Shown piece by piece: positions 3,020 to 53,740 of a DNA stretch of 64,000 nt (position 1 is the first letter of the stretch; every line of letters begins with the position of its first letter). Source of the DNA: Candidatus Bilamarchaeaceae archaeon (GTDB lineage Archaea; Micrarchaeota; Micrarchaeia; Anstonellales; Bilamarchaeaceae). A model generated the notes under the pieces. The model searched no databases. It was not told the origin of the DNA and saw nothing but the letters and a program-made list of their open reading frames with translations. The stretch lies in contig JAWCKZ010000001.1 in assembly GCA_038851325.1 (NCBI GenBank), positions 111,410 through 175,409 of the forward strand. The letters are read 5' to 3'. The position numbers and the translations under genes were made by a program.

Positions 3020-3802
3020 GTGTACACAAATAGGGCAATCACAATAGCTGCTCTTTTAGGCGGATTTATTGCACTGGTGCTCTCGCTGGTATTCGGCAAT
3101 CCGATTCTGGCGGTCATCTCTGCAATTTTCTTTTCAGCCAGTATCGCATTATGGAAGTATGGTTATCTTATCGTTCCCCTTTTCACACAAGCAACAAACA
3201 TCGTGGAAGTCAGGGATGAATTCGAGATACCACCGTCGCGAGATTACATAATAAAGAAAACACCTGATGGATACTACGCAACCAAATTTCTTGAGGTGCG
3301 TTTCTATGAAAGTTCCATGGACAAAATGGAAAGTGAAAAGAGACTTCTCTTTGAGTCCTTTGAAAAGGCGATAAGCTCTCTAAAATATGTGGTCAAGATA
3401 TCGACCCTTATATCCGCAATAGACCTCTCGAAGCACATAGATGAGATAAAAACAAGAAGAAGTGCAGTTGAGACAAAAAGAGCTGCTGAGGAGCGTCTCA
3501 ACCCAGCAGAGGTAATGAGATACGACCGCGAAATAGCGATGCTCACGCGCCTGCTTGATCGTTTTGGCAAAGGTGAACGACCTATAGAGGTTATTGCATT
3601 TGCTTCCACAACTGCTTTTGGACTTACGAGGGATGAAGCGGTGAGCAAGGCAAATAGGCAAGGAAAGGAATTAAAGACAATCCTATCGAGCTCCCTTGGG
3701 TGCGATGTCAGAGAGCTGAAGGACCTTGAGATGTTAAAATGCTTCGAATGGGAACTCTTCTATCCTCCAGACGAGGAATCGCTAAGGGATGAGGTGTTCT
3801 GA
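3020..3802 (+). CDS. membrane-anchored N-terminal module (2 TM helices plus a soluble domain) preceding a VirB4/HerA-family ATPase. Same reading frame as the ATPase ORF, separated only by a TGA.
   Basis: GTG start with a GGAGGTG RBS. Two N-terminal hydrophobic helices (ITIAALLGGFIALVLSLVF, ILAVISAIFFSASIALW) followed by about 200 aa of charged soluble sequence. The stop TGA at 3800-3802 is immediately followed in frame by the TTG start of the ATPase. Confidence 0.55.
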   Translation: MYTNRAITIAALLGGFIALVLSLVFGNPILAVISAIFFSASIALWKYGYLIVPLFTQATNIVEVRDEFEIPPSRDYIIKKTPDGYYATKFLEVRFYESSMDKMESEKRLLFESFEKAISSLKYVVKISTLISAIDLSKHIDEIKTRRSAVETKRAAEERLNPAEVMRYDREIAMLTRLLDRFGKGERPIEVIAFASTTAFGLTRDEAVSKANRQGKELKTILSSSLGCDVRELKDLEMLKCFEWELFYPPDEESLRDEVF

Positions 3803-5236
3803 TTGAAGCTTACTTATACCTTATCAAAAGAACTTGCGAGGCGTCTGCCGTTAACACATCCCCCAGAACCAAGAAAGACTCTTCTACTCTCAAAGCCGTT
3901 CGATGGCGTCTATATAGGGAAAACGCGATTTCTTCACGTCCCGGTTTTTTGGAACCCAGATAAGCTCATAAACCCACACATAGGAGTAATAGGGATAACG
4001 GGTTCCGGAAAGAGTTATACTGTTAAAACATTTCTGACCCGCGCTTCTCTTATTTGGAATACAAACGCGCTAATACTAGACTGGGTCGGCGAATATGATA
4101 AATGGGTTAGACAAGCAGGGGGGCGCGTGATAAATCTTGCAGCGGAAAAGCTAAACATTCTTGATCTTGTAGGTCTTCCAAAGCACAGCCGGATAAAGCA
4201 AATAATGTCGGCATTTGACATCCTTGCTGATTTGAAGAGCTTCCCAAATGAACGGGATGAGATTGAGGATGCGCTGGAGCATGTTTACGAATCCGTCAAC
4301 AAACCGGTTCTCCTCGATGTCATAAAATACCTTGAAAAAAAGGAAAAGTATAAGGCAGCGAGGTTGCTTAAACGATTCGCTGCTGAAGGAAGCGATTTCT
4401 TCGCTGGTAAAACAACCCTTGATATTAAATCGCTTACATCATCGGGACTTGTCTGTATAGATCTACATGAACTTCCAACCGAAGAGATAAGAAGTCTTGC
4501 TGGGCTCACAATTCTTCAGTATGTAAAGGAACTCATGCGCGCTGAAGGCATGAAAATAGATAAAAAGGTGCGACTTTTTGTTGTTCTCGATGAAGCTTGG
4601 AAGATAGCGCAGGATGAACGAAGCGATGTGATAGCCATTGTCCGCGAAGGCCGAAAATATAATTTTTCATTGATAATAGCCACACAGAATCCAACGGATA
4701 TGCATAAGACGATATTTAGCAATATGGGAAGCATGTTTATTTTAAGGCTCATACTCAAAGAGTATCGCGATTTCGTGCGTGAGTCAGTAGGATATCCATC
4801 CTTTATAGATCATGAGATATCCAGATTCGGCGTTGGGGATGCTGCGGTTAACATGATATTTGCTGAGAGACAGGAGCGGGCTATGACCTTTCTTCTGGAA
4901 AAGATAGACGGCGAGGATCCGCTTTTTATTTATAAGATTAGGGGTGGAAAGATGGAAATCGAAATTGAGAGAGAGCAATTCGTTAAAATGCTTTATGAAT
5001 TGGGATTAACAGAAGGTCAGTTGGAACTCATAAAAAAAGAATTCGAAAAAAGAGATGGATTAATGGAAGGAGAACATCTTGTTGAAATGCTGGAACGATT
5101 TGGGTATTCGAAATCTTCCATAATCGCATTCCTTCGCCAGCTTGGCTTTGAAGAGAAAAACCTGGTAAGAATATTTTCATTGGTAAAAATGCGAAAGGCT
5201 GCAAAAGGCGTTGTAAATGTTGTATTAGAAGAATGA
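3803..5236 (+). CDS. FtsK/HerA/VirB4-superfamily P-loop ATPase (VirB4/CedB-like or DUF87-like)
   Basis: Walker A GITGSGKSYT. Walker B LFVVLDEAW (DEAW as in VirB4/TrbE). NFSLIIATQNPTDM (ATQ motif of the HerA/VirB4 clade). TTG start preceded by GGATGAGGTG. Confidence 0.7.
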   Translation: MKLTYTLSKELARRLPLTHPPEPRKTLLLSKPFDGVYIGKTRFLHVPVFWNPDKLINPHIGVIGITGSGKSYTVKTFLTRASLIWNTNALILDWVGEYDKWVRQAGGRVINLAAEKLNILDLVGLPKHSRIKQIMSAFDILADLKSFPNERDEIEDALEHVYESVNKPVLLDVIKYLEKKEKYKAARLLKRFAAEGSDFFAGKTTLDIKSLTSSGLVCIDLHELPTEEIRSLAGLTILQYVKELMRAEGMKIDKKVRLFVVLDEAWKIAQDERSDVIAIVREGRKYNFSLIIATQNPTDMHKTIFSNMGSMFILRLILKEYRDFVRESVGYPSFIDHEISRFGVGDAAVNMIFAERQERAMTFLLEKIDGEDPLFIYKIRGGKMEIEIEREQFVKMLYELGLTEGQLELIKKEFEKRDGLMEGEHLVEMLERFGYSKSSIIAFLRQLGFEEKNLVRIFSLVKMRKAAKGVVNVVLEE

Positions 5237-5239
5237 TGG

Positions 5240-5950
5240 GTGTACGGTATGACAGAAAAGATAGTCATAAAAGCAGTACAGAAAAAGAACATGAGTCCGC
5301 TTGCGACACTTATGGGAAACCTTGGTTTCACAAAGATATCATACTTAAAGGATACGCTCACAATAGAGAGAGTCACAGGATACGACCTCAACAGAAACCC
5401 AGAACTCGATTATCGTATAGTTTTCAGCCCACAGGAGATAGTGCTGGAATACGAGGTACCTAAGAACAAAAACAAAAAGGCAAGACTTCTAAGCGTTCTT
5501 CCGATATTTCTTAATGTTCTGCAACTAGTTGAGGACTACTATGACATAAAGCCATCAGCAATTTACTTTGAGGTTAACACCGCACTCACTGAAGCCTTAA
5601 AACTTGTTGGAAAAGATGTTGTTGACCTTTCAACAGAGCTGAGCGAGCTCCAGGCGAAATACAGGAGCCTGTCAGCAAAGTATAACGACCTTCTCCGCTC
5701 AAGCGAAGAAAACGCAAGGATTCTTCTTGAGTATGAAAGAAAAAAAGATGAATTAAACAGAAAAGTGGAAAGGCTTACGCGCTACAGTGATGACGCTCTC
5801 AAGGAGATGGTATATGAATGGATAAAATTACATGGTGGAAAGATAAATCTTCTTGAGTTTTCAAAGATACATAGGGTTCCGATACCTCGCCTCGAGGAGA
5901 TATTGAATATGCTCGTTACAGAGGGGTATATAAAAAGGAGGTTTGAATGA
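5240..5950 (+). CDS. coiled-coil protein with a C-terminal winged-helix-like domain, hypothetical partner of the ATPase
   Basis: Overlaps the ATPase stop. Central heptad-like segment (LSTELSELQAKYRSLSAKYNDLLRSSEENARILLEYERKKDELNRKVERL). C-terminal LEFSKIHRVPIPRLEEILNMLVTEGYIKRR resembles a wHTH. Confidence 0.45.
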   Translation: MYGMTEKIVIKAVQKKNMSPLATLMGNLGFTKISYLKDTLTIERVTGYDLNRNPELDYRIVFSPQEIVLEYEVPKNKNKKARLLSVLPIFLNVLQLVEDYYDIKPSAIYFEVNTALTEALKLVGKDVVDLSTELSELQAKYRSLSAKYNDLLRSSEENARILLEYERKKDELNRKVERLTRYSDDALKEMVYEWIKLHGGKINLLEFSKIHRVPIPRLEEILNMLVTEGYIKRRFE

Positions 5951-9159: not shown

Positions 9160-9278
9160 AATTGTTTTCGCAGGAGTGGCGGAGTGGTCAAACGCGGCAG
9201 ACTCAAGATCTGAATGTTCCTTTCACGATTGTGTGGTGGGAAATCTGTTGGCCAAGCGCCTACACAGGTTCGAATCCT
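9160..9278 (+). tRNA. tRNA-Leu (anticodon CAA) with an intron of about 35 nt at the canonical anticodon-loop position
   Basis: Acceptor GCAGGAG/CUCCUGC with discriminator A. D-arm GCGG-AGUGGUCAAAC-GCGG. Anticodon loop CUCAAGA. Long variable arm UGGCCAAGCGCCU. T-arm ACAGG-UUCGAAU-CCUGU. AUCUG duplicated (9198-9202 and 9234-9238), consistent with an intron between them. Confidence 0.65.
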
Positions 9279-9319
9279 GTCTCCTGCATCTTTTTATTTT
9301 TATTCCTAGATAAGGAGAC

Positions 9320-16417: not shown

Positions 16418-16478
16418 AGTTGGTAAGTAAGAGCTGATGTTTTAAACTCTTATGTTAAGAAAAATCTTAGGTGTGCAT

Positions 16479-17915
16479 ATGCAAATTCCGAAATCAAACT
16501 TCTCAGAATGGTACAACGCCATAATAAAGGAAGCTCAACTCTGCGACCTTCGATATGAAGTCAAGGGATTTGTAGTTTTTATGCCCTGGGCAGTTCTTAC
16601 TATGAACAAAATGTATGAAATCTACGAGAAAGAACTCCAGGCGCGCGGTCATCTCCCGGCACTCTTTCCTGCGCTCATTCCAGAGCATTACATAATGAGA
16701 GAGAGTGAACACGTTGCTGGATTTGTGCCAGAGGTTTTTTGGGTAGCAACGGCAGGCAAAAACCAACTTGAGGAAAAACTTGCGATGAGACCTACTAGCG
16801 AAACGGCTATCTATCCTATGTATGCGCTTTGGATTCATGGAAAGAAAGACCTCCCGCTTAAGATCTACCAGAGATGTCAGGTCTGGCGATATGAAACAAA
16901 AGCCACAAAGCCATTCATACGCTCAAGAGAATTTTATTGGATAGAAACACATAACTGCTTTGCCACGAAGGAAGACGCAGAGGACCAAGTTCGTGAGGAT
17001 ATGGAGATGGCAGAGAAGGTTCTTCACGGTGAGTTTGGCGTTCCGTTCCTTTTTTTCAAGAGACCGCAGTGGGATAAATTCGCCGGAGCAGATGATACCT
17101 ACGCTGCGGATACGCTAATGCCTGATCGTAGAGTTCTTCAGCTACCATCCACACACATGTTAGGGCAAAATTTTGCAAAAGCTTTTGGTATAAAATATAT
17201 GGATGAAAACGAGAAAGAGCAGTACGTATGGCAGACATGCTATGGCCCAGCTATTTCAAGAATATACGCAGCAGTGATAGCAACTCACGGAGATGACAAG
17301 GGATTAGTCCTTCCGTTTGAGCTTGCGCCACTGCAGATTGTCATAGTACCTATAGTAAAAAAGGATACGGAACAAACGGTCATAAAAAAAGCAAGAGAGT
17401 TACGCGACAAGTTGGCTGAACGTTACTCTGTCAAGCTCGATGAGAGTGAGGAAACGCCTGGCGCAAAGTACAACTTTTGGGAAATGAAAGGTGTGCCACT
17501 CCGAATAGAAATTGGAATGCGTGACATCGAACATAAATCTGTAACTATCTTCCGACGCGACATAAGGGAAAAGAAGTTGGTAAAAGAAAACGACATTTTT
17601 GAGGAGATAGAAAACATGCGTACAGAGATAAAGGTCGTTTTACGTAAGAGAGCAGATGAGTGGTTTAAAAAACAGCAGGGAGAGGCTGACACAATCGAGG
17701 AGCTCAACAGTGCACTTGAGAGATATGGACTTGTTAAAGTGCCATTTTGCACAGATCGCATGGAAGGAGAGAGATGCGCTGATGTTGTTAAAGAAAAATG
17801 CCATGCAAATATAAGAGGAACGCTTTACGGAAACAACGAAAGTCCAAAAGGAAAGAAGTGCATCGGATGCGGGAAAAAAGCTACACTGTATCTATATGCT
17901 GCCAGGCAGTATTAA
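16479..17915 (+). CDS. proS: prolyl-tRNA synthetase (archaeal/eukaryal type with a C-terminal zinc-binding domain)
   Basis: Class II aaRS motifs. Archaeal-type N-terminus FSEWY. C-terminal Cys cluster CIGCGKKA. The ORF extends upstream to 16452, but ProRS homologs start near MQIPK. Confidence 0.9.
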   Translation: MQIPKSNFSEWYNAIIKEAQLCDLRYEVKGFVVFMPWAVLTMNKMYEIYEKELQARGHLPALFPALIPEHYIMRESEHVAGFVPEVFWVATAGKNQLEEKLAMRPTSETAIYPMYALWIHGKKDLPLKIYQRCQVWRYETKATKPFIRSREFYWIETHNCFATKEDAEDQVREDMEMAEKVLHGEFGVPFLFFKRPQWDKFAGADDTYAADTLMPDRRVLQLPSTHMLGQNFAKAFGIKYMDENEKEQYVWQTCYGPAISRIYAAVIATHGDDKGLVLPFELAPLQIVIVPIVKKDTEQTVIKKARELRDKLAERYSVKLDESEETPGAKYNFWEMKGVPLRIEIGMRDIEHKSVTIFRRDIREKKLVKENDIFEEIENMRTEIKVVLRKRADEWFKKQQGEADTIEELNSALERYGLVKVPFCTDRMEGERCADVVKEKCHANIRGTLYGNNESPKGKKCIGCGKKATLYLYAARQY

Positions 17916-17970: not shown

Positions 17971-20640
17971 ATGATTACTCAAAAAAGCCTGTTGACTCAA
18001 AAGGTTGAAACCTATCTAATCCTCGCAAAGGAAAGCGAGCGCTTTTGGCATTTTCTTGGTGTTTTCTTAGCCGCTCTCCTTATGCTGAGTACAATCAAAT
18101 TTTACCCGCTCTTTATTGTCTTCCTCCTCGCTGCAATTTGTGGTGCAATAGCTTATTTCAAACCACCCTTGGCTACCATTGCCTCTTTCATTTTTGCATT
18201 TCCAGCAGTTGTGTACCAATCGGCAGCATTTGGTTGGATCTTCGCTCTCATACTTGCCATAGTACTCTTTGAGGCGTTTGAAAACTGGACAATAATAACT
18301 GTGCTTCAAATATTGGTAATGGCCCCGTTTGCCTTTGATAGACTTCCGGTATTTGGTTGGATGTCTATATTTTGCATGCTCGCCTTTTCGTTTCATTTCG
18401 GTTCGAAGCGAAGCGCCCTCATTTCTATCCCAGCAGTACTCTCTATTCTTCTTATGTCAACTCTTCTCTCCACCGAAAACAGCGCTTTCATGCCAATAAA
18501 TCTTCGACTATACGCGCCCTATTCCGAATTTATGTTTAAAAAAAATGCGGTAGAAATAGAAAACCTGAGTAGCGAACTCCTAAAAGCCATAGATCGTTTT
18601 TTCAATGCCCAAAACATGGGTTCTGTATTTCTAGCCATAAATTTAATTGCAACAAACATTTTTACTATTCTCTTCGTTGACTCTGGACTTGTGCAGCTCT
18701 TGGGATGGACGACTGTTCTTTTCCTTGCACCCTATCTTTCCGCGCGGCTAAAGAACAGGCCGCAGCTGTTCTCCAGCCTTTCGCTTCTTATCTTAATCCC
18801 GGTTTACTACTTTGCCGGAATGATTTCTGGCACTGGCCTCCATCTGGGCTTTGTTGCTGCTGTTATTTTTTCCATTGCGCTTTTTGGGCTTATGGAACAC
18901 ATCGGCTGGCGGATAACCAGAGAGACAGAGCTCCAACGTGCTGAGAAAGTGAAAGAATACGGAAAGTTTGGATTCAAAGATGTTGGAGCTGTTGCAACAG
19001 AGACGCTTGCGGACATAGGTGGTTACGAAAAAATAAAACAAGAACTAAAAGATGCTATCATGCTACCTCTAGAAAGGCAGGAGATAGCTCATGCATATGG
19101 AATGAAACCCCCGTCTGGAATTCTTCTTTTCGGTCCTCCAGGCACAGGAAAGACAGCGCTGATGCGTGCGCTCGCACGGGAACTTAAATACAACTTTATA
19201 GAAGTAAAGTGCTCCCAAATCCTGTCCCAATGGTATGGTGAATCTGAGAAGAACATCGCAGAAGTCTTTGCTACTGCTCGCAAAACTGCTCCAACAATCC
19301 TGTTCTTCGATGAGATAGACACTATAGGAAAGAAGAGGGCTGTGGCCGCGACAGATGAGGTAACACCGCGAGTGCTGAGCGCGATGCTTCAGGAGATGGA
19401 CGGAGCTGTTAAGTCAAAAGCATCTGTAATTGTTGTTGGCACAACAAACATCCCAAATCAGCTTGACCCTGCCCTTCTCAGACCTGGACGTTTTGACAAG
19501 ATAATCTACATGCCGCTTCCTGATTTCGAAGGAAGAAAAGCGATATTCAAAGTACTTACGAGAAAGCTCCCATTAGATCCTGATGTTGACTTTGACCTAC
19601 TCGCAAAAAAAACAGAGCGCTTCTCCGGTGCGGACATAAAGAATATAATTACCGAAGCAAAGAACGCCGCCGCAAAAGAAGCAGCCTCAAAGGGCGTGAT
19701 TGTGCCGATTGGAATGAGACATATTCTCCCCCTTCTTAAATTTGTAAAGCCAAGTACCACGTTGGAACAGTTAGCGGAGTATGAAAAATTTAAGATGGAC
19801 TTTGAAAGAAGCATAGCTGCAAAGGAGAAGAAGCCAGAGATCGAGGAGGTTAAATGGAGCGACGTTGTTGGCATGGAGAATATTAAACAGACTTTGCTCG
19901 AGACCATACAGCTTCCACTCCTTCACGAAGATCTTATGAAACAGTTCAATATAAGACCAAGCAAAGGAATACTCCTGTTTGGCCCGCCCGGAACAGGCAA
20001 AACATTAATCGTGCGGGCCGCTGCAAATGAATTAAACGCTTCTTTCCAAGCGCTGAGCGGAGCTGACCTCATGAAGAGAGGGTATTTCTATGCCACAAAC
20101 GTAATAAAGGAGGCATTCAATCGTGCGAGGGAGAACGCACCGTCGATAATTTTCATAGACGAGATAGAAACATTCTTACCAGCACGCGGTGCAAGCTCAT
20201 CAGAGATGGTCGGGCAGTTCCTCGCGGAAATGGACGGAATAAAGGAATTAAAAGGGGTCGTGGTTATTGCGGCCACAAACAGACCTGACCTTCTGGACCC
20301 TGCCATTCTCAGACCAGGCAGGTTCGACAAGATATTCTACATCCCCCCGCCTGATGAAAAGTCAAGAGCGGAAATATTTAGACTTAATCTTGGGGAGTTC
20401 GCTAAAGGGATTGATCTAGAAAAACTTGCCAAGCTTACGAATGGCTTCAGTGGCGCTGATATCGCAGCAATATGCAGAGATGTAAAAATGATGGCTTTAC
20501 GCGAAAAACTCACTGGAAGAGAACCAAAAATAACGACTGTGATGATAGAAGAGATAATAATGCAGCGGCGCCCATCGATAACACCGATGATGCTTAAGCT
20601 CTATGAAGCATTTATAGAAAAATACGGCGAACGCAAATAA
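17971..20640 (+). CDS. CDC48/VAT-like double AAA+ ATPase fused to an N-terminal polytopic membrane domain of about 320 aa
   Basis: Two complete AAA modules (GPPGTGKT twice, DEID Walker B twice, SRH regions LRPGRFDKIIY and LRPGRFDKIFY). The first about 320 aa comprise roughly 8 hydrophobic helices in place of the usual CDC48 N domain. Confidence 0.8.
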   Translation: MITQKSLLTQKVETYLILAKESERFWHFLGVFLAALLMLSTIKFYPLFIVFLLAAICGAIAYFKPPLATIASFIFAFPAVVYQSAAFGWIFALILAIVLFEAFENWTIITVLQILVMAPFAFDRLPVFGWMSIFCMLAFSFHFGSKRSALISIPAVLSILLMSTLLSTENSAFMPINLRLYAPYSEFMFKKNAVEIENLSSELLKAIDRFFNAQNMGSVFLAINLIATNIFTILFVDSGLVQLLGWTTVLFLAPYLSARLKNRPQLFSSLSLLILIPVYYFAGMISGTGLHLGFVAAVIFSIALFGLMEHIGWRITRETELQRAEKVKEYGKFGFKDVGAVATETLADIGGYEKIKQELKDAIMLPLERQEIAHAYGMKPPSGILLFGPPGTGKTALMRALARELKYNFIEVKCSQILSQWYGESEKNIAEVFATARKTAPTILFFDEIDTIGKKRAVAATDEVTPRVLSAMLQEMDGAVKSKASVIVVGTTNIPNQLDPALLRPGRFDKIIYMPLPDFEGRKAIFKVLTRKLPLDPDVDFDLLAKKTERFSGADIKNIITEAKNAAAKEAASKGVIVPIGMRHILPLLKFVKPSTTLEQLAEYEKFKMDFERSIAAKEKKPEIEEVKWSDVVGMENIKQTLLETIQLPLLHEDLMKQFNIRPSKGILLFGPPGTGKTLIVRAAANELNASFQALSGADLMKRGYFYATNVIKEAFNRARENAPSIIFIDEIETFLPARGASSSEMVGQFLAEMDGIKELKGVVVIAATNRPDLLDPAILRPGRFDKIFYIPPPDEKSRAEIFRLNLGEFAKGIDLEKLAKLTNGFSGADIAAICRDVKMMALREKLTGREPKITTVMIEEIIMQRRPSITPMMLKLYEAFIEKYGERK

Positions 20641-20642
20641 AA

Positions 20643-22385
20643 CTAAACCTTACGACTTCCCTTTCTTTGCAGTTCATACATCTCTTTTACCTCATCGGTT
20701 GTTGTCGCTTCTTTCGCGCTTCTATCTTCTCTAAGCCTAAGCATCCGTGGAAAGCGAAGTGCATAACCCTTATCTTCATGTAGACCGCATGTATGAATAG
20801 GTGAAAGTGTTATCTCATCAAATGCGACCTCAACAACATATTCAGGTTCTACCCAAAAATCCGGCTTTATTCTGTAATCAAGGTCCTTCGGTGGCTCCTT
20901 TCGTTTTATCTTGTCAAGCGCTCGCTTTAGCGACACCATTTCCTCCTCGCTAAAACCAGAACCTATCTTTGCGACAGTTTCATACTTATTCCTGTCCGGA
21001 TTATAGACAGCTATCAGAAGACCGCCAAATTTAAATTCAGCCCGTGCTCCCTTTCCGAGATAATAGCCAACGATTACTCCGTCTATCGTGTCGACCGCTT
21101 TTCCATACGATTTCTTCAACTTTATCCATGCAAACTTTCTCTTCCCAGCTGTATAAGGAGCATTCAGGTCCTTTGCCATTATTCCTTCAAGTCTTCGATT
21201 TATTGCATCTTCAAAGCACTCCTGAAGTTCCTCTGCAGTCTTTACTATTTTTTGCTCACTCAACTTAAGTATTCCCTCCCTATCTACCGGTATTACTTTC
21301 TCAAGCGCAGCTCTTCTCTTACTATACGGCTCCGTTGTGTAATCCTTTCCATTTAGATAGAGAAGGTCAAAACAGAAAAGATTTAACGGAAGCTCCTTCT
21401 TTGCTTCCTCAACACCGTATTTTCTCTTTCTTTGGATCGTCTCTTGAAATGAGTAGTATCTCCCCTCTTTTTTGTTGTAAGCAAGCGCCTCCCCTTCCAG
21501 GATTATTTCCTTCTCTTTCAGTCTTTTTACCGCGTCAACTATCTCTGGGAACATATGGGTCATTCTGTCAAGCCTTCTGGAGTAGAGCTCTACATTCTCT
21601 CCGCTTTTGTGTACCTGAAGCCTAAAACCGTCGTATTTTCCTTCGCTTGCGCACTCTCCGATTTTTTCTATTATCTCCTCTGGTGTGCTCAACCGTTCCG
21701 CCAGAGCAGGCATGAGGGGCTTAAATGGCTGAACGGTGAATCGCTCTACTTTCTTTTCATCTTCATAGAAAAGCCGTGCGACATAGCCGATGTCTGAGCA
21801 GACATCATATGCACGTTCCAATCGTTCTCTCCACGATTTATCCCCAAAGCGTGCCACTGAGAGCGCATCGAGTATAGTCGGATCACCAACACCAAGACGA
21901 AGTCTCCCAAGCACGAAACGTATAATGTAACGCGCTTCAAGAGGACTTGCACTATTAAGCAATTCCGCGAGATATCTCTTTTTTAATTCATTACTCCCAG
22001 GACCGGAAGTTTTAGCAATTCTCATCAGCGCCTCGTGAAGATAGATGATCGTCATCTCTGATTTGCTGAGTGAAAGTTGTTTTTTCTTTTTTAGGAGTTC
22101 TTCCGCAGTTATTCCCAAATCGCCTGTTTTCTTAAAATGCGCTTCAACGTCTTTTTGAGAGTAACCTGTTGCCGATGCTATCGCGTCTATTGCAAACCGC
22201 TCACCAAGGCCAAGCTCAATCCCTTCAAATGGTGGCGCAACAACCCCCTGCACAAAATAAACAAGTTTTTCTATCTCCTTGCTGTCAGCCTTTTTAAAAA
22301 GTCCTGCCAACAATCCTGTCATTTCTATTCTTCCGCTTTTGCTCTCAACCTTATCAAAAACCTCTGCAACTTCTTTGAAATGCAT
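20643..22385 (-). CDS. lig: ATP-dependent DNA ligase
   Basis: Adenylation motif KYDGFRLQV (K-x-DG-x-R), OB-fold and DNA-binding domains. About 580 aa, typical of archaeal LigA-type ATP ligase. Confidence 0.9.
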   Translation of the reverse strand: MHFKEVAEVFDKVESKSGRIEMTGLLAGLFKKADSKEIEKLVYFVQGVVAPPFEGIELGLGERFAIDAIASATGYSQKDVEAHFKKTGDLGITAEELLKKKKQLSLSKSEMTIIYLHEALMRIAKTSGPGSNELKKRYLAELLNSASPLEARYIIRFVLGRLRLGVGDPTILDALSVARFGDKSWRERLERAYDVCSDIGYVARLFYEDEKKVERFTVQPFKPLMPALAERLSTPEEIIEKIGECASEGKYDGFRLQVHKSGENVELYSRRLDRMTHMFPEIVDAVKRLKEKEIILEGEALAYNKKEGRYYSFQETIQRKRKYGVEEAKKELPLNLFCFDLLYLNGKDYTTEPYSKRRAALEKVIPVDREGILKLSEQKIVKTAEELQECFEDAINRRLEGIMAKDLNAPYTAGKRKFAWIKLKKSYGKAVDTIDGVIVGYYLGKGARAEFKFGGLLIAVYNPDRNKYETVAKIGSGFSEEEMVSLKRALDKIKRKEPPKDLDYRIKPDFWVEPEYVVEVAFDEITLSPIHTCGLHEDKGYALRFPRMLRLREDRSAKEATTTDEVKEMYELQRKGSRKV

Positions 22386-28149: not shown

Positions 28150-29772
28150 TTGCTGGGAAAAAAGTTTATGGCGGAGGAATTTACAGAAGAAGAAAAAAAA
28201 GTGCTGCACCTTTTTGTCAGCAACACGGATAAGAATATTTTTGTATTGAAAAATCTTCCAGAGGTTGTAAAGGGCGCGCTTTTCTCACGCTATAGTAGGA
28301 GTTCAAAATCTCTTCGCCGCCTCCTTCTCGATGAATTCATCGGAAACAAGGAACTTAGTGTAGAAAAACTAATGAACAAACCTGAAGAGGATATAGTTAT
28401 TACAAAAAAGGCAGAGGAGTTTTATGACCGTGTTCTTGTGGGATTCGGGGATGATTCCGTTGCTGAGCTTGCGGGAACGCATCTTGCGCTAGAGAACATA
28501 TCCATGCTTGCAACAAAAGCCATAGAGGATTGCCGCATAGGCCTATCTCCCCTAGAAAAATCGACACGATATGTATACTTTGACAAAAAGGTCGATGGCA
28601 AATGGCTATACTACGAAGAACCAAGGCTAATGGAGGAATTTCCTGATGATTACAGAGAAGCATGCAATAGAGCTTTCGAAACATACACTGGACTTATCCA
28701 GAAGATATCTAAATATGTAAGTGAGAAGCTGGAACAAGGTCAACTTTCTGACAGAGCGTACGAAGCGGTTGTACGAGCTAAAACGTGCGACATCCTGCGC
28801 GGGCTTCTGCCTGCCTCAACTCTGACAAACATGGGAATATTTGGAAATGGGAGGGCCTTCGAGTATCTTCTCATAAAACTTTATGCGAGTAATCTTTCAG
28901 AACTAAAAATCATTGCTGCCCAAACCGAAAATGAACTCAAGAAAACAATCCCGTCCTTCGTAAAGCGCGCAAGTGAGAGACACGGTATTGAAATGCAGGA
29001 GTACCTAAGAGGACTTACAGAGAACATGATTTCTGTTGCACCAAAAGAAATATCCACAGAATGCGACTCGGTAAGGCTTGTTGATTATGATAAGGATGCC
29101 GAAGTGAAGATCATAGCTGCGATGCTCTACCCACACTCCGCACTTACTCTCGTGGAATTGGAAGAGCGAGTAAGAAAAATGCCAGAAGCCGAACGAAGAG
29201 CGCTGCTTAGTGCCCATTTTAGCAGAAGAACAAACAGGAGGCATAAACCAGCAAGGGGATTTGAGCGGGTATACTACACATTCGAGGTATGCACGAACTT
29301 TGGTGCCTACAGAGATCTTCATAGACACAGGATGCTTACGCAGCAGAGACAATTGCTGACAACAAAGCTCGGATACGATATCCCTAAAGAGATTGTTGAA
29401 GCAGGGCACGAGAGTGAATTCAAAGATGTTATGGAGGTCGCAGCCAACGGGTATGAAAGGATTGCAAAAAAACTGCCAGAAGAAGCGCAGTACATCGTGC
29501 CGCTCGCATATAGAATCAGATGGCAGATAACAATGAACCTCAGGGAGGCCTTTTACCTCTGCGAACTGCGTTCGACAGCACATGGCCATAGGGATTATAG
29601 GCACATAGCACAGGAGATTTGCAGAAAAATAAAAAGTGTCCACCCCTTCTTAACAGAAGGGATGATGTTTGTTGATATGAAAGAGTACGAATTTGAACGG
29701 CTTGAATCAGAGAAGAGAATGGACAAAAAAATCGAAGAAATAAAAAAGAAATACGGTAAAGGGAATAATTGA
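28150..29772 (+). CDS. thyX: ThyX-like FAD-dependent thymidylate synthase, unusually long form (540 aa)
   Basis: RHR...TQQRQ motif (HRHRMLTQQRQ) resembling the ThyX RHR-x7-S/SQxSxRY signature. N-terminal half carries an FSRYSRS-like segment, which suggests a duplicated or extended ThyX fold. Confidence 0.5.
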   Translation: MLGKKFMAEEFTEEEKKVLHLFVSNTDKNIFVLKNLPEVVKGALFSRYSRSSKSLRRLLLDEFIGNKELSVEKLMNKPEEDIVITKKAEEFYDRVLVGFGDDSVAELAGTHLALENISMLATKAIEDCRIGLSPLEKSTRYVYFDKKVDGKWLYYEEPRLMEEFPDDYREACNRAFETYTGLIQKISKYVSEKLEQGQLSDRAYEAVVRAKTCDILRGLLPASTLTNMGIFGNGRAFEYLLIKLYASNLSELKIIAAQTENELKKTIPSFVKRASERHGIEMQEYLRGLTENMISVAPKEISTECDSVRLVDYDKDAEVKIIAAMLYPHSALTLVELEERVRKMPEAERRALLSAHFSRRTNRRHKPARGFERVYYTFEVCTNFGAYRDLHRHRMLTQQRQLLTTKLGYDIPKEIVEAGHESEFKDVMEVAANGYERIAKKLPEEAQYIVPLAYRIRWQITMNLREAFYLCELRSTAHGHRDYRHIAQEICRKIKSVHPFLTEGMMFVDMKEYEFERLESEKRMDKKIEEIKKKYGKGNN

Positions 29773-36713: not shown

Positions 36714-37439
36714 TCAACCGTACATGCTTCCTGATTCTGTTACTGAAGGTCCTTTTTTTGATATCTTTGAGTGTATTATACTTTCCTTCAGCGCCTTGGC
36801 TTCCTTATCGAGCTCAGCTGTGTTTATCTCAACACCTATAAGCTTTGAAAGTGTTTTCAAAGCTCTGCTCGCTGCCTTAGAATCGAGATACTCTTCTGAT
36901 GATTCCACAAGAATGGTAATAACTGGAAAGTTGAACACAGAGCCCATGAATAGCAGCAGACCAGTTACACCTGTTGTTGCCCCTTCCTTTATAGGCTTGG
37001 CAATCTTCCTGTCAGCGAGTTCCTTCGTAAGTTCCTTGCTTGATGAGATGACATAAACCTCACCCTCCTTCTCCTTGAGCGAGATCCCTCCAAGCGATAT
37101 TATCTGCCGTGCATTCAAGGACCGTGCAAATGAGTATATACCGTTTGCGAGTTCATTCGAAGTAGAGATGGGTATCGACATTTCGGAAAGAATGACAACA
37201 AGATTGTATTTCTCGGAATAATGGATACGCGCGGCTGGCATGGGAGTGTAATTATGGATCGCTGCGAGGGGGGCAAACTCATCACTCGTTATGTAACCAC
37301 CAAAGTCAAGTTTTAAAATGTCCACCAAATGAGCAACAGCAACGCTGCCGACAAGGCCTGTTCCTGGAAACCCTACGATCATGGTAGGTTTTTGGAGCCT
37401 TTTCATATTCGCTATTTTATGAAATTCAACTTTTGTCAT
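36714..37439 (-). CDS. PAC2-family proteasome assembly chaperone (PbaA/PbaB-like)
   Basis: N-terminal TMIVGFPGTGLVGSVAVAHLV matches the PAC2 signature, about 240 aa. Confidence 0.7.
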   Translation of the reverse strand: MTKVEFHKIANMKRLQKPTMIVGFPGTGLVGSVAVAHLVDILKLDFGGYITSDEFAPLAAIHNYTPMPAARIHYSEKYNLVVILSEMSIPISTSNELANGIYSFARSLNARQIISLGGISLKEKEGEVYVISSSKELTKELADRKIAKPIKEGATTGVTGLLLFMGSVFNFPVITILVESSEEYLDSKAASRALKTLSKLIGVEINTAELDKEAKALKESIIHSKISKKGPSVTESGSMYG

Positions 37440-53071: not shown

Positions 53072-53740
53072 TCAACCCACTTTTTTCTTGACAAAATTAA
53101 TAGTCTGCTTGGCAGGTCTGATTGCCTTTTCTGCATCTTCGGCATCAAATGCTTCTGCAGGAATGCCACCAGGAAGTCCTGCCGGATAACGCGTGGGGAT
53201 ATAGTACTTGTCAAAAGAGGATATCTTCGACCTTAACTCTCCGAATTCCTTGTTCAGTTTTTCATCATCGTAGGCAAGCTCTGCTATCAAATGGCCCCAC
53301 ACTTCTTCGGCGCCATGTGCATAAAGGAATGATTTAAGGGCTTTTTCGGCTGCATCCTGTCCGGCTTGTTTCGGCCAGCGCTCGGCCTCTTTTTTTTGCT
53401 CAGGCTTCATACAGCACTGTCCCCCTCTCCAGCATTCTCCGTGTAAATAGCTGCTTGATTTCAGGTCTGCGATTTCTGCGGGTGTGTAAACAAAAAAATC
53501 CACGACAACTCTTGGCTTAACGCGCGCATAAAGCTCTTCGAGCCTTTCGGAGAATCTCTTTCCCGTATTTTTTATTATTGCGATGTCCATGTCGCTGCTC
53601 TTGCGCACTTGCTTCTCATTCAAAGAACCGAAAAGGATTATTTTCAGGGCGCCCAGCTTTTTTATTTCTGCAAGTATTCGCCTAAGCTCAGCCTTGAGTA
53701 GTTTTTCCCTCTTTTTGCCGAGGCCTGTTTTGAATTCCAT
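53072..53740 (-). CDS. nucleotidyltransferase (MNT) - HEPN fusion protein
   Basis: N-terminal Pol-beta NTase motif LFGSLNEKQVRKSSDMDIAII (GS-x9-13-D-x-D). C-terminal helical region with HEPN-like character. Confidence 0.55.
   Translation of the reverse strand: MEFKTGLGKKREKLLKAELRRILAEIKKLGALKIILFGSLNEKQVRKSSDMDIAIIKNTGKRFSERLEELYARVKPRVVVDFFVYTPAEIADLKSSSYLHGECWRGGQCCMKPEQKKEAERWPKQAGQDAAEKALKSFLYAHGAEEVWGHLIAELAYDDEKLNKEFGELRSKISSFDKYYIPTRYPAGLPGGIPAEAFDAEDAEKAIRPAKQTINFVKKKVG

Follow-up and report, generated by a model that had tools for sequence, protein, structure and literature searches.

Classical AAA unfoldases thread their substrates from the N-terminal face, in Cdc48 through the D1 and then the D2 ring, and the D2 ring of VAT/p97 is a threading unfoldase ring. 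FtsH and Msp1 take their substrates from the membrane side, and the anchors of FtsH, Msp1 and Bcs1 consist of one or two poorly conserved helices. The MBA (membrane-bound AAA) proteins of the Sulfolobales have one AAA module and two transmembrane (TM) helices flanking an external domain. To our knowledge, archaea are generally without FtsH, and the removal of damaged or unwanted membrane proteins in these organisms is poorly understood.

A 2012 census of archaeal AAA proteins in 81 genomes placed the Sulfolobus MBA proteins in a separate group and contained no group of polytopic double-AAA proteins of the type described here (PMC3493965). In the membrane-embedded AAA protein Bcs1, the TM region and the ATPase ring act jointly on a protein substrate crossing the membrane (PMC10567702). 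We found no description in the literature of the membrane domain reported below joined to a double AAA module, and the papers on Micrarchaeota genomes, on the cultivation and cryo-ET of strain ARM-1 and on Bilamarchaeum make no mention of such a protein, of proteasomes or of AAA ATPases.

In this study, we analyzed a stretch of 64,000 nucleotides (the window) from a Candidatus Bilamarchaeaceae archaeon (contig JAWCKZ010000001.1). We show that one of its genes joins in a single polypeptide a conserved, novel membrane domain of ~10 helices (ND), a flexible linker of ~35 residues and two catalytically complete, classical-clade AAA modules that appear most like the D2 module of Cdc48/VAT.

Results

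The gene and its surroundings

The open reading frame starts with ATG and encodes 889 amino acids with zero internal stops (Table 1). The product is 100% identical to the GenBank MAG protein P0002, annotated as "AAA family ATPase" of Candidatus Bilamarchaeaceae archaeon (Micrarchaeota, DPANN). The preliminary description of this DNA had proposed a single polypeptide with a polytopic membrane N terminus and two intact AAA modules, and this is what the uninterrupted frame encodes. A separate upstream gene for the hydrophobic part, the alternative named in that description, was looked for; there is no stop codon and no such gene, and the fusion is kept in more than 100 clusters. Named database matches with ND alone are flagged "partial." Codon 327, in the linker, is GTG, and most family members have Met or GTG at this position. 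Initiation there might produce a soluble isoform without ND.

The TATA-like element upstream of the gene is a putative archaeal promoter, from which we infer a near-leaderless transcript. The gene was said to lie between proS and a DNA ligase gene in a core chromosomal context, and both flanking genes were confirmed at those places. The core context is real but uninformative. The ProRS/ligase synteny does not extend beyond the two closest relatives. Housekeeping genes (H+-pyrophosphatase, shikimate pathway, DRG GTPase and ScpA) recur as neighbors of the family's genes, and near these loci we found no conserved partner that would name a pathway or substrate and no linked protease or adaptor.

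Table 1. Features of the gene and its flanks, with positions in the window
Feature	Position	Strand	Basis or remark
Upstream neighbor, ProRS	16452..17915	+	
TATA-like element TTTTAA	17942..17947	+	24-29 nt 5' of ATG, direct sequence reading
Complete gene, ND-linker-D1-D2 double AAA+ ATPase	17971..20640	+	889 aa plus stop
N-terminal tail, residues 1-25, amphipathic helix 7-21	17971..18045	+	predicted helix, family K+R
Membrane domain ND, residues 26-311	18046..18903	+	~10 hydrophobic helices, 52-aa loop 167-218
Linker, residues 312-345, helix 318-328 then flexible stretch	18904..19005	+	pLDDT, invariant residues
Codon 327	18949..18951	+	GTG
AAA module D1 plus lid, residues 346-615	19006..19815	+	motifs invariant in 108 sequences
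D1 pore loop 1, W421-Y422-G423	19231..19239	+	canonical aromatic-hydrophobic-Gly
AAA module D2 plus lid, residues 616-889	19816..20637	+	motif alignment, PDB match
Conserved C terminus, Y885-G-E-R-K889	20623..20637	+	not HbYX
Downstream neighbor, ATP-dependent DNA ligase	20643..22385	-	

The membrane domain

Residues ~26 to 311 are strongly hydrophobic, and AlphaFold2 predicted 10 hydrophobic helices in addition to the N-terminal amphipathic helix, with a mean pLDDT of 86.8 and a pTM of 0.82. The polytopic membrane region put forward earlier is therefore retained, with its count of ~8 TM helices revised to ~10. The N-terminal tail, in which Q10 and Y15 are nearly invariant, is positively charged across the family (mean K+R, 3.67) and is predicted to be cytoplasmic.

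ND is conserved, with ~61% column-majority identity in the alignment. Its conserved motifs are P46, Q83, E101/E104-x-W106, A118-P-F120, G144-S-K/R-K, N170…P175 and D237-S…Q242…W246, and 15 residues of the hydrophobic region, including Q83, D237, Q242, W246 and G144-S145, are invariant among 24 diverse members. Several of the invariant residues are polar or charged and lie inside hydrophobic helices, and E101/E104 form an acidic patch in a long helix.

When residues 1 to 335 of 24 members were compared with Pfam and NCBIfam at an E value of ≤1, only scattered chance matches were returned. The region, which is predicted to be all-helical and hydrophobic, had no match to CDC48_N or CDC48_2 (double-psi-barrel and beta-clam), in agreement with the earlier observation that the canonical CDC48 N domain is missing. 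Foldseek found no PDB fold match to the predicted ND (best E = 0.56, TM ≤ 0.2), and hhalign found no internal repeat in it (probability, 0.9%). ND is thus a new membrane domain without relatives in Pfam, NCBIfam or the PDB folds despite its confident AlphaFold model.

Topology and linker

Loop charges favored a topology of ND in which both the N and C termini are inside. This is supported by the domain order of P0183, a relative of the Thermoplasmatota type, in which an ectodomain, a TM helix and a Lys-rich loop precede ND. Two topology models fit, each with a flaw: one puts the GS(K/R)K loop outside, and the other requires a 39-residue helix to be a hairpin. N-glycosylation sequons were not enriched in the 52-aa loop (0.60 observed versus 0.68 expected per 100 aa) and were topologically uninformative.

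The linker residues 331 to 342 have pLDDT values below 50, and this low-confidence flexible stretch contains the invariant K332-F333-G334 motif. The model of the full-length monomer has a pTM of 0.47 and does not fix the packing of ND against D1. The FtsH profile aligned with residues 299 to 572, placing the last TM helix, the linker and AAA module D1 in register with those of FtsH.

The two AAA modules

Pfam assigned two PF00004 AAA domains (E = 5.5e-82) and two AAA_lid_3 domains (E = 8.3e-26) to residues 346 to 615 and 616 to 889, so that the protein belongs to the classical AAA clade with all catalytic motifs. In D1 these are Walker A (G388-T395), Walker B (D447-E448), sensor-1 (T492-N493) and the Arg fingers R504/R507; in D2 they are Walker A (G671-T678), Walker B (D730-E731), sensor-1 (T769-N770) and the Arg fingers R781/R784. 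None of these elements (Walker A, Walker B, sensor-1 and the two SRH arginines) varies in either ring among 108 homologues. The W and G of the D1 pore loop are invariant in the same 108 sequences, and the pore loop of D2 is noncanonical (G704-Y705).

Both modules matched VAT/p97 D2 best: D1 scored 224.7 bits against VAT D2 versus 170.5 bits against VAT D1, and the best PDB match of D2 was the VAT/p97 D2 ring (E ~ 1e-121). By these scores and matches, both of the tandem modules appear closer to VAT/p97 D2 than to D1.

Comparison with known systems

Like Cdc48/p97/VAT, the protein carries two classical-clade AAA modules in tandem, each with a lid and the full set of catalytic motifs, and its best PDB sequence matches were VAT (5vc7, 5g4g) and p97 (E ~ 1e-117 to 1e-121). 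Unlike them, it has a membrane domain of ~10 helices in place of the double-psi-barrel/beta-clam N domain, two modules that both appear D2-like instead of a D1/D2 pair, and a D2 pore loop of G-Y, not W-x-G. Its score with the CDC48 family model TIGR01243 was 535.6 bits, below the cut-off of 802.65. With two modules that appear D2-like and this subthreshold score, the protein is more than a CDC48 whose N domain has been exchanged, and the label "CDC48-like" used in the preliminary description needs this correction.

Like FtsH and the mitochondrial m-/i-AAA proteases, the protein has a classical AAA ring anchored in the membrane, with the N-face predicted to be turned toward it and a flexible linker between the TM segment and the AAA module, and the proposed role in membrane protein extraction would be analogous. 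However, the protein has two AAA rings where FtsH has one, ~10 TM helices where FtsH has 1-2 plus a periplasmic domain, and no M41 metalloprotease. The sequence stops right after the D2 lid, and no peptidase family was among its Pfam matches. With the FtsH model TIGR01241 it scored 404.1 bits (cut-off, 600).

PAN also has a classical AAA module, and the HbYX tails of a minority of relatives (MYR) resemble its docking motif. In contrast to PAN, the protein of the window lacks a coiled-coil/OB N domain, has two rings and is membrane embedded; the PAN models TIGR01242 and NF003069 gave 444.6 and 458.9 bits, below the cut-off of 500. MBA proteins, too, are classical AAA proteins of archaea that are anchored in the membrane at the N terminus. 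On their generally known architecture they are set apart by 2 TM helices as opposed to 10 and by one AAA module as opposed to two.

Msp1/ATAD1, a classical AAA hexamer anchored in the membrane, extracts membrane proteins by threading them through its pore and serves here as the mechanistic model, but it is eukaryotic and has a single TM helix, a single AAA ring and no polytopic domain. Bcs1 differs in being heptameric, with one TM helix per subunit, a single divergent AAA module and no canonical threading pore loop, and it carries its cargo across the membrane in folded form, away from the ATPase side.

The family and its distribution

We define the ND-AAA family by an ND with the motifs FYP, YQS, FExFExW, APFxF, GS[KR]K and DSxxxQxxxW that leads directly into the KFG linker and then a classical AAA module, and take the protein of the window as its reference member. 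Matches covering the whole length came from over 100 clusters and from 36 species-level genomes, and 108 non-intein homologues aligned end to end at 55-67% identity. The fused frame is present in 36 independently assembled Micrarchaeota genomes, with clusters from NCBI, JGI, ENA and Logan. A word-indexed search with ND alone had returned one fragment only; this was an artefact of sensitivity, as the full-length and exhaustive profile searches recovered the family. The ND profile identified 76 representatives among 1.84 billion proteins, and in every complete hit ND lies directly N-terminal to the AAA module.

ND-AAA is thus no isolated oddity but a Micrarchaeota-wide family, and its variants include single-AAA, intein-bearing and HbYX-tailed proteins. 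In 12 of 120 relatives an intein interrupts the sequence immediately after E424, next to the D1 pore loop. Distant Thermoplasmatota proteins whose N terminus differs also keep ND, with recognizable motifs; the non-AAA part of P0183, used as the query, found only three more sequences. The cultivated Micrarchaeota strain ARM-1 encodes a member.

The C terminus and the proteasome

The HbYX motif is defined as [LVIMGAPFYW][FY]x at the extreme C terminus (PMC3493965). The protein of the window ends in YGERK, outside this pattern, and 102 of 120 family members share the ending YGER[KR]. A strict HbYX ending (MYR, MYG or MFG) occurs in 9 of the 120, and three more end in the near miss HYR. These endings, for example GMYR, ride on a flexible, acidic or Pro-rich C-terminal tail of 14-25 aa and are found in one clade and several scattered lineages. 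Archaeal Cdc48 likewise has C-terminal HbYX tails. The HbYX tails, present in ~10% of members, imply a putative direct docking onto the 20S proteasome. For the protein of the window and the 85% of the family without HbYX, no coupled protease was identified. The window also contains the gene of a proteasome chaperone of the PAC2 family, whose C terminus reads SMYG.

Two loci (L019 and L034) encode a second AAA paralogue; it has one AAA module and a hydrophobic tail at its C terminus and was rejected as a canonical Cdc48 or PAN.

Discussion

The D1 pore loop is canonical, the motifs are invariant in both rings, and the modules appear to be of the D2 threading type. On these grounds we infer, at about an even chance, that ND-AAA is a double-ring AAA+ unfoldase specific to Micrarchaeota that is integral to the membrane, assembles into rings (hexamers by homology) and acts as a membrane protein dislocase. 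The G-Y pore loop of D2, the lack of a conserved neighboring gene that names a pathway or substrate and the absence of HbYX from most members weigh against this reading. The best reading of the protein is still the one first suggested in the preliminary description, an unfoldase built into the membrane that resembles FtsH or ER-associated Cdc48 in function. The N-face of the D1 ring would sit against the cytoplasmic side of the membrane, where the W-Y-G pore loops would engage substrates embedded in or attached to the membrane. The flexible linker, the register shared with FtsH and the loop charges that favor N and C termini inside support this geometry. Substrates would be threaded from D1 to D2 and released unfolded into the cytoplasm at the membrane-distal face. 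Such a dislocase would serve membrane protein quality control or turnover, the niche of FtsH in bacteria and of Cdc48 with ERAD membrane factors in eukaryotes. The HbYX tails of some members and the PAC2 chaperone of the window would both fit an exit face that is cytosolic and compatible with the proteasome. In HbYX-tailed members, a 20S proteasome may be docked onto this face; the protein of the window, having no such tail, would release its substrates to the cytosol or hand them over otherwise.

It is also conceivable, though unlikely, that ND only tethers a general Cdc48-like unfoldase or segregase that works on soluble or peripheral substrates near the membrane, with no handling of substrate by ND itself. 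The two AAA modules by themselves amount to a full motor of the VAT type, the flexible linker decouples them from ND, and the Met or GTG at linker codon 327 might give an ND-less soluble form in most members. However, mere tethering would not call for ~10 helices, nor for 15 invariant residues of which several are polar or charged and lie in hydrophobic helices, and the known anchors of FtsH, Msp1 and Bcs1 are far simpler. ND is also kept across single-AAA, double-AAA and Thermoplasmatota variants. From its invariant residues, its sequence identity, its confident fold and its retention in the distant Thermoplasmatota proteins, ND is probably more than an anchor, with conserved polar and acidic residues that help to recruit substrates or lower the barrier to extraction.

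A large, conserved polytopic domain coupled directly to a threading motor, with the acidic patch E101/E104 in a long helix, could alternatively suggest a transmembrane translocase, in which six NDs form a channel coaxial with the AAA pore for Bcs1-like export or for import of external or host proteins. Micrarchaeota are host-dependent symbionts, and ARM-1, which has a family member, receives host nanotubes with a 4.4-nm lumen that arrive at an unidentified envelope platform (ARM-1 literature). We consider a translocase quite unlikely, since hardly any of the protein's mass is extracellular and available for receiving substrates, the neighborhood has no conserved genes for secretion or uptake, and the HbYX tails of some members point to a protease rather than to use of the product; export would in addition oppose the usual threading from the N-face to the C-face. 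The special case of a self-contained, ATP-driven translocase with channel and motor in one chain, in which the six NDs form a protein-conducting pore, external or host polypeptides are pulled inward, for example via the ARM-1 nanotubes, and HbYX lineages feed a membrane-docked 20S proteasome for amino acids, is very unlikely. Separately, ND-AAA was considered as the barrel in the ARM-1 envelope and was rejected on size and location, the barrel being 21 nm wide and in the envelope.

The polar membrane residues that do not vary (D237, Q242, Q83, E101/E104 and G-S-K-K) resemble an active site or an ion path, and the ND fold has no known counterpart in the PDB. ND itself might then be a transporter or a membrane enzyme for lipids, glycans or ions that the AAA rings regulate, assemble or energize without unfolding. 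This appears very unlikely, because ND has neither similarity to a transporter or enzyme family at an E value of ≤1 nor a PDB fold match, the internal structural repeat typical of transporters is absent, and the canonical pore loop and full threading machinery, needless for a regulator, are strictly conserved. The chance that mis-assembly, a frameshift or a wrong gene call fused a membrane protein gene with a Cdc48 gene is practically negligible. The frequent Met in the linker is the one weak hint in its favor; against it stand the same unbroken frame in 36 independent assemblies and more than 100 clusters, a linker conserved with its invariant KFG and named ND-only matches that are annotated as partial.

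If the dislocase reading is true, ND-AAA would be a third independent solution to membrane extraction beside FtsH and Cdc48 with ERAD membrane factors or Msp1. With a candidate membrane-side path and the motor in one chain, the family may provide a test bed for the question of whether dislocases require a membrane conduit of their own, and because the cultivated ARM-1 carries a member, experiments are feasible. ND is a new, confidently foldable family without structural relatives in the PDB, and it marks the Micrarchaeota lineage. From the HbYX-tailed variants one would predict a possible membrane-bound Cdc48-20S proteasome holoenzyme.

Gene, ORF and flanks

The ATPase gene (see the table) is a single ORF with the ProRS and DNA ligase genes on either side, where the preliminary description had placed them. 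Pfam searches of its 889-aa product identified two AAA domains (PF00004, 5.5e-82) and two AAA lids (PF17862, 8.3e-26) but nothing in the first ~340 residues, while a Kyte-Doolittle scan showed strong hydrophobicity at residues ~26-311. The proposal that one polypeptide joins a hydrophobic N-terminal region to two AAA modules was therefore confirmed by the uninterrupted ORF with its two domains and two lids. The alternative named in the preliminary description, that the hydrophobic region is a gene of its own and the ATPase starts internally, was not borne out. Database matches containing only the membrane domain (ND) were flagged 'partial' where named and otherwise had full-length cluster-mates. 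The window protein is 100% identical to a GenBank MAG protein that is annotated 'AAA family ATPase [Candidatus Bilamarchaeaceae archaeon]' and encoded on a contig of 184 kb.

Positions of the ATPase gene and other features (in the window unless a locus is named)
Feature	Position	Strand	Description
ND-D1-D2 ATPase gene	17971-20640	+	889 codons, ATG start, zero internal stops
TATA-like TTTTAA	24-29 nt 5' of ATG		in 55-nt gap behind ProRS gene
ProRS, class-II archaeal-type	16452-17915		upstream flank of ATPase gene
ATP-dependent DNA ligase	20643-22385		convergent, downstream flank; end 2 nt from ATPase gene stop codon
Linker codon 327	18949-18951	+	GTG
Equivalent of intein site in relatives	~19240-19245	+	between E424 and S425
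PAC2-family proteasome-assembly chaperone (PbaA/B-like)	36714-37439	-	PF09754, 5.8e-37; C-terminus …SGSMYG
HerA/DUF87-type ATPase	3803-5236	+	PF01935, AAA_10
ORFs tightly flanking HerA-type ATPase	3020-3802; 5240-5950		no Pfam family matched by either
tRNA	9170-9288	+	full-length Rfam match, 55.3 bits, model positions 1-71, across 119 nt
ThyX ORF	28150-29772	+	PF02511, 540 aa, two Thy1 stretches
Nucleotidyltransferase-HEPN ORF	53072-53740	-	Pol-beta-type (PF18765) and HEPN (PF05168) in one ORF
~87-aa ORF upstream of family gene, example	L019 9324-9587		same strand as family gene
AAA paralogue	L019 ~19880-20996; L034 ~19790-21005	-	cut off by locus end

Family extent and conservation

In a 5.8-billion-cluster database, the best 120 matches were 878-921 aa long (~1,390 aa where an intein is present) at 55-67% identity and, for the intein-free sequences, 99-100% query coverage. 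Their named sources were Micrarchaeota throughout, save one 'Candidatus ainarchaeum sp.' The distribution of the fusion across archaea, which the preliminary description had suggested following, was obtained by a pattern search plus tblastn of one genome per GTDB species. The scan returned 36 loci, nearly all titled Micrarchaeota MAGs and two labelled 'ainarchaeum', with the fused ORF at each wherever the contig permits. Public annotation calls these proteins 'AAA family ATPase', 'VCP-like ATPase' or 'hypothetical protein'.

Conservation of the membrane region falls only moderately short of that of the ATPase: aligning 108 members that lack inteins gave column-majority values of 0.61 and 0.78, respectively. 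Among 24 maximally diverse members, 15 residues within the first 335 are invariant: P46, A79, Q83, P119, F120, G144, S145, D237, Q242, W246, L250, E318, K332, F333 and G334.

Gene neighbourhoods of the family were uninformative, with housekeeping genes alone recurring. In 11/37 loci, a conserved, uncharacterised ~87-aa ORF (MVTKDEIDRVIGWCENVKKERNRIYVIERNPF…) lies 286-677 bp upstream; it is not in the window, where ProRS occupies that place. At two loci, the family gene is followed ~9 kb downstream by a different AAA paralogue. The paralogue has one AAA module of the classical type, whose Walker A is GPPGCGKT and whose pore loop is M-Y-V-G. After the module come ~140 aa and a C-terminal tail that is hydrophobic (…FLKIFKIVIVFILRVIVFITEGGRIV), and the protein looks like a tail-anchored AAA ATPase.

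A new membrane domain

ND is a new domain. Searches of Pfam and NCBIfam with 24 members returned nothing beyond scattered chance matches, and no internal repeat was found in it. AlphaFold2, run with the family alignment, modelled ND with confidence (mean pLDDT 86.8, pTM 0.82) as an all-helical domain: ten hydrophobic helices preceded by an amphipathic one at the N-terminus, plus a loop of 52 residues (167-218). The N-terminal membrane region proposed earlier thus stands, while the count of roughly 8 helices does not.

When 1.84 billion representative proteins were searched exhaustively with an ND profile (HMMER), 76 matched in total at E <= 1e-3, and local domain mapping of these placed a classical AAA module directly C-terminal to ND in every complete sequence. 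Besides the core ND-D1-D2 form, in which D1 and D2 are the first and second AAA modules, there is a divergent set of ND-D1-D2 proteins with RYGQR at the C-terminus, among them BCS90610.1 of Micrarchaeon ARM-1, a strain grown in co-culture. Other variants are a 619-aa ND-AAA protein of Anstonellaceae and an 822-aa protein with a single recognisable AAA module. The 21-nm barrel at the ARM-1 nanotube docking site was rejected as the ND-D1-D2 ATPase, being too large and on the wrong side of the membrane.

Outside the window, a few rare proteins of ~1,000-1,300 aa (P0183, P0218-P0220, P0181, P0186 and P0190; the label of P0183 gives a Thermoplasmatota MAG as source) begin with a signal-anchor helix and continue with an ectodomain of ~340 aa rich in sequons, one more TM helix, an ND-like region and an active D1, in that order. 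The ND-like region keeps the motifs IPFYPWW…AYKYP and AAAYQSPEFG…FFDW, and D2 is degenerate in P0183. Only three further relatives were found when the non-AAA portion of the P0183 type served as query. Thermoplasmatales are reported hosts of Micrarchaeota, and host-symbiont gene transfer is conceivable.

Topology of ND

Mean numbers of K+R across the family are 3.67 in the N-terminal tail, 2.87 in loop 258-264, 6.8 in the linker and 1.98 in the G144-S-(K/R)-K loop. On these charges, the tail, loop 258-264 and the linker must be cytoplasmic, which predicts an N-in/C-in topology. The order of ectodomain, TM helix, Lys-rich loop and ND in the Thermoplasmatota relative agrees with it. For the middle of ND, two models remain. 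In Model A, the 39-residue helix 85-123 spans the membrane once, burying its conserved E101/E104-x-W106 patch, with the 52-aa loop cytoplasmic and GSKK outside. In Model B, helix 85-123 folds into a hairpin and helix 219-236 is not membrane-spanning; the 52-aa loop is then outside and GSKK is cytoplasmic. The two could not be told apart by sequon counts.

The motor and its assignment

The preliminary description held both AAA modules to be intact, and the catalytic motifs agree: Walker A (GPPGTGKT), Walker B (DE), sensor-1 (TN) and the SRH arginines (RPGR) are invariant in D1 and D2 of 108/108 sequences. Both modules have the SGAD motif of the classical clade. Pore loop 1 of D1 is canonical (W421-Y-G423, then ESEK); that of D2 is conserved yet non-canonical (G704-Y705).

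The best PDB match for both modules was the D2 ring of VAT (5vc7, 5g4g) and p97 (E 1e-117 to 1e-121), and the window D1 scored 224.7 bits against VAT D2 versus 170.5 bits against VAT D1. The curated cut-offs for CDC48 (TIGR01243; 535.6 bits versus 802.65), PAN (NF003069; 458.9 versus 500) and FtsH (TIGR01241; 404.1 versus 600) were all missed. By these scores the protein is assigned to the classical AAA clade, nearest to Cdc48/VAT, although outside the curated CDC48 family. "CDC48-like" therefore holds as to nearest relative, but not in the sense that the N-domain alone was exchanged, since both modules match D2 best. There is also a likeness to FtsH: its profile aligns from residue 299, with the last TM helix, linker and AAA in register with FtsH TM2, linker and AAA.

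The full-length model had a mean pLDDT of 80.7 and a pTM of 0.47. Since residues 331-342 fall below pLDDT 50, a flexible tether is predicted to join ND and D1; an invariant K-F-G motif sits within it. Met stands at linker position 327 in 81% and at 335 in 72% of the family. A start codon (ATG/GTG/TTG) occurs at 327 in 29/35 loci (L001-L036) and at either position in 31/35, with neither in 4; no ribosome-binding-like element was seen. The position may be an internal start producing a soluble D1-D2 isoform, or merely a conserved hydrophobic residue.

Fourteen relatives carry inteins (P0018, P0023, P0058, P0060, P0074, P0088, P0089, P0111, P0113, P0114, P0119, P0120, P0122 and P0127), inserted inside the D1 pore-loop motif (…W-Y-G-E/S-L-P…H-N/S-E-K-N…); the window's own gene has none. 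Their length is ~490 aa, homing endonuclease included, or ~180 aa for the mini-intein of P0122. P0127 (1,912 aa) has a second just ahead of Walker B (…HN/CILFFDEID).

C-terminus and proteasome

Among the best 120 matches, 102, including the window protein, end in YGER[KR], and nine add an acidic or Pro-rich tail of 14-25 residues that closes with MYR (in seven), MYG or MFG. All nine fit the HbYX pattern for 20S proteasome docking, [LVIMGAPFYW][FY]x>, given by Forouzan et al. (PMC3493965). Three more members end in HYR. On a neighbour-joining tree, the tails occupy one clade and, elsewhere, several isolated lineages, a pattern implying that they were gained or lost more than once.

The PAC2 chaperone in the window ends in a canonical HbYX, and so the organism very probably possesses a 20S proteasome with HbYX pockets. 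We infer that the membrane-distal face of D2 is cytosolic and reachable by the proteasome, and that the unfoldase would dock directly on 20S in some lineages, with the window's copy not docking by the canonical route.

Other features of the window

The tRNA match fits an intron-containing archaeal tRNA; ARAGORN in default mode reported zero tRNAs anywhere in the window. At roughly double the normal length, the ThyX ORF may represent a tandem duplication or a fusion of flavin-dependent thymidylate synthase. The nucleotidyltransferase-HEPN ORF is, by its domains, a predicted fused minimal NTase-HEPN module of toxin-antitoxin type, and the HerA-type ATPase and its flanking ORFs may be a small uncharacterised HerA-associated operon.

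Proposed mechanism and novelty

The family has the fused architecture, a competent motor, a conserved ND and variable HbYX tails. Classical AAA unfoldases thread substrate from the N-terminal face, in Cdc48 through D1 and then D2, and FtsH and Msp1 take substrate from the membrane side. Because threading from the N-terminal face is expected by homology, we read the window protein, at roughly even odds, as a membrane dislocase. A hexamer would sit with D1 facing the inner side of the membrane, its W-Y-G loops would seize polypeptides embedded in or attached to the membrane, and these would be extruded unfolded into the cytoplasm.

That ND is only a membrane anchor is unlikely, as its strongly conserved polar residues oppose this. 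A transmembrane translocase is quite improbable, since linked secretion or uptake genes are absent and HbYX tails indicate degradation. It is more doubtful still that ND is a transporter or enzyme under control of the rings, because searches showed neither family nor fold similarity to support this and the threading pore loop is conserved. A channel-plus-motor translocase linked to the symbiotic lifestyle is very improbable, and an assembly artefact hardly credible.

The 2012 census of archaeal AAA proteins is older than the Micrarchaeota genomes. Its groups are Vps4, MBA, Mm0854, AMA, PAN and CDC48 (PMC3493965). No description of the ND-D1-D2 architecture was found in the census or in the Micrarchaeota, ARM-1 and Bilamarchaeum papers. 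By its architecture, the window protein is a predicted membrane-anchored classical AAA unfoldase, new in its membrane domain and its double D2-type ring.
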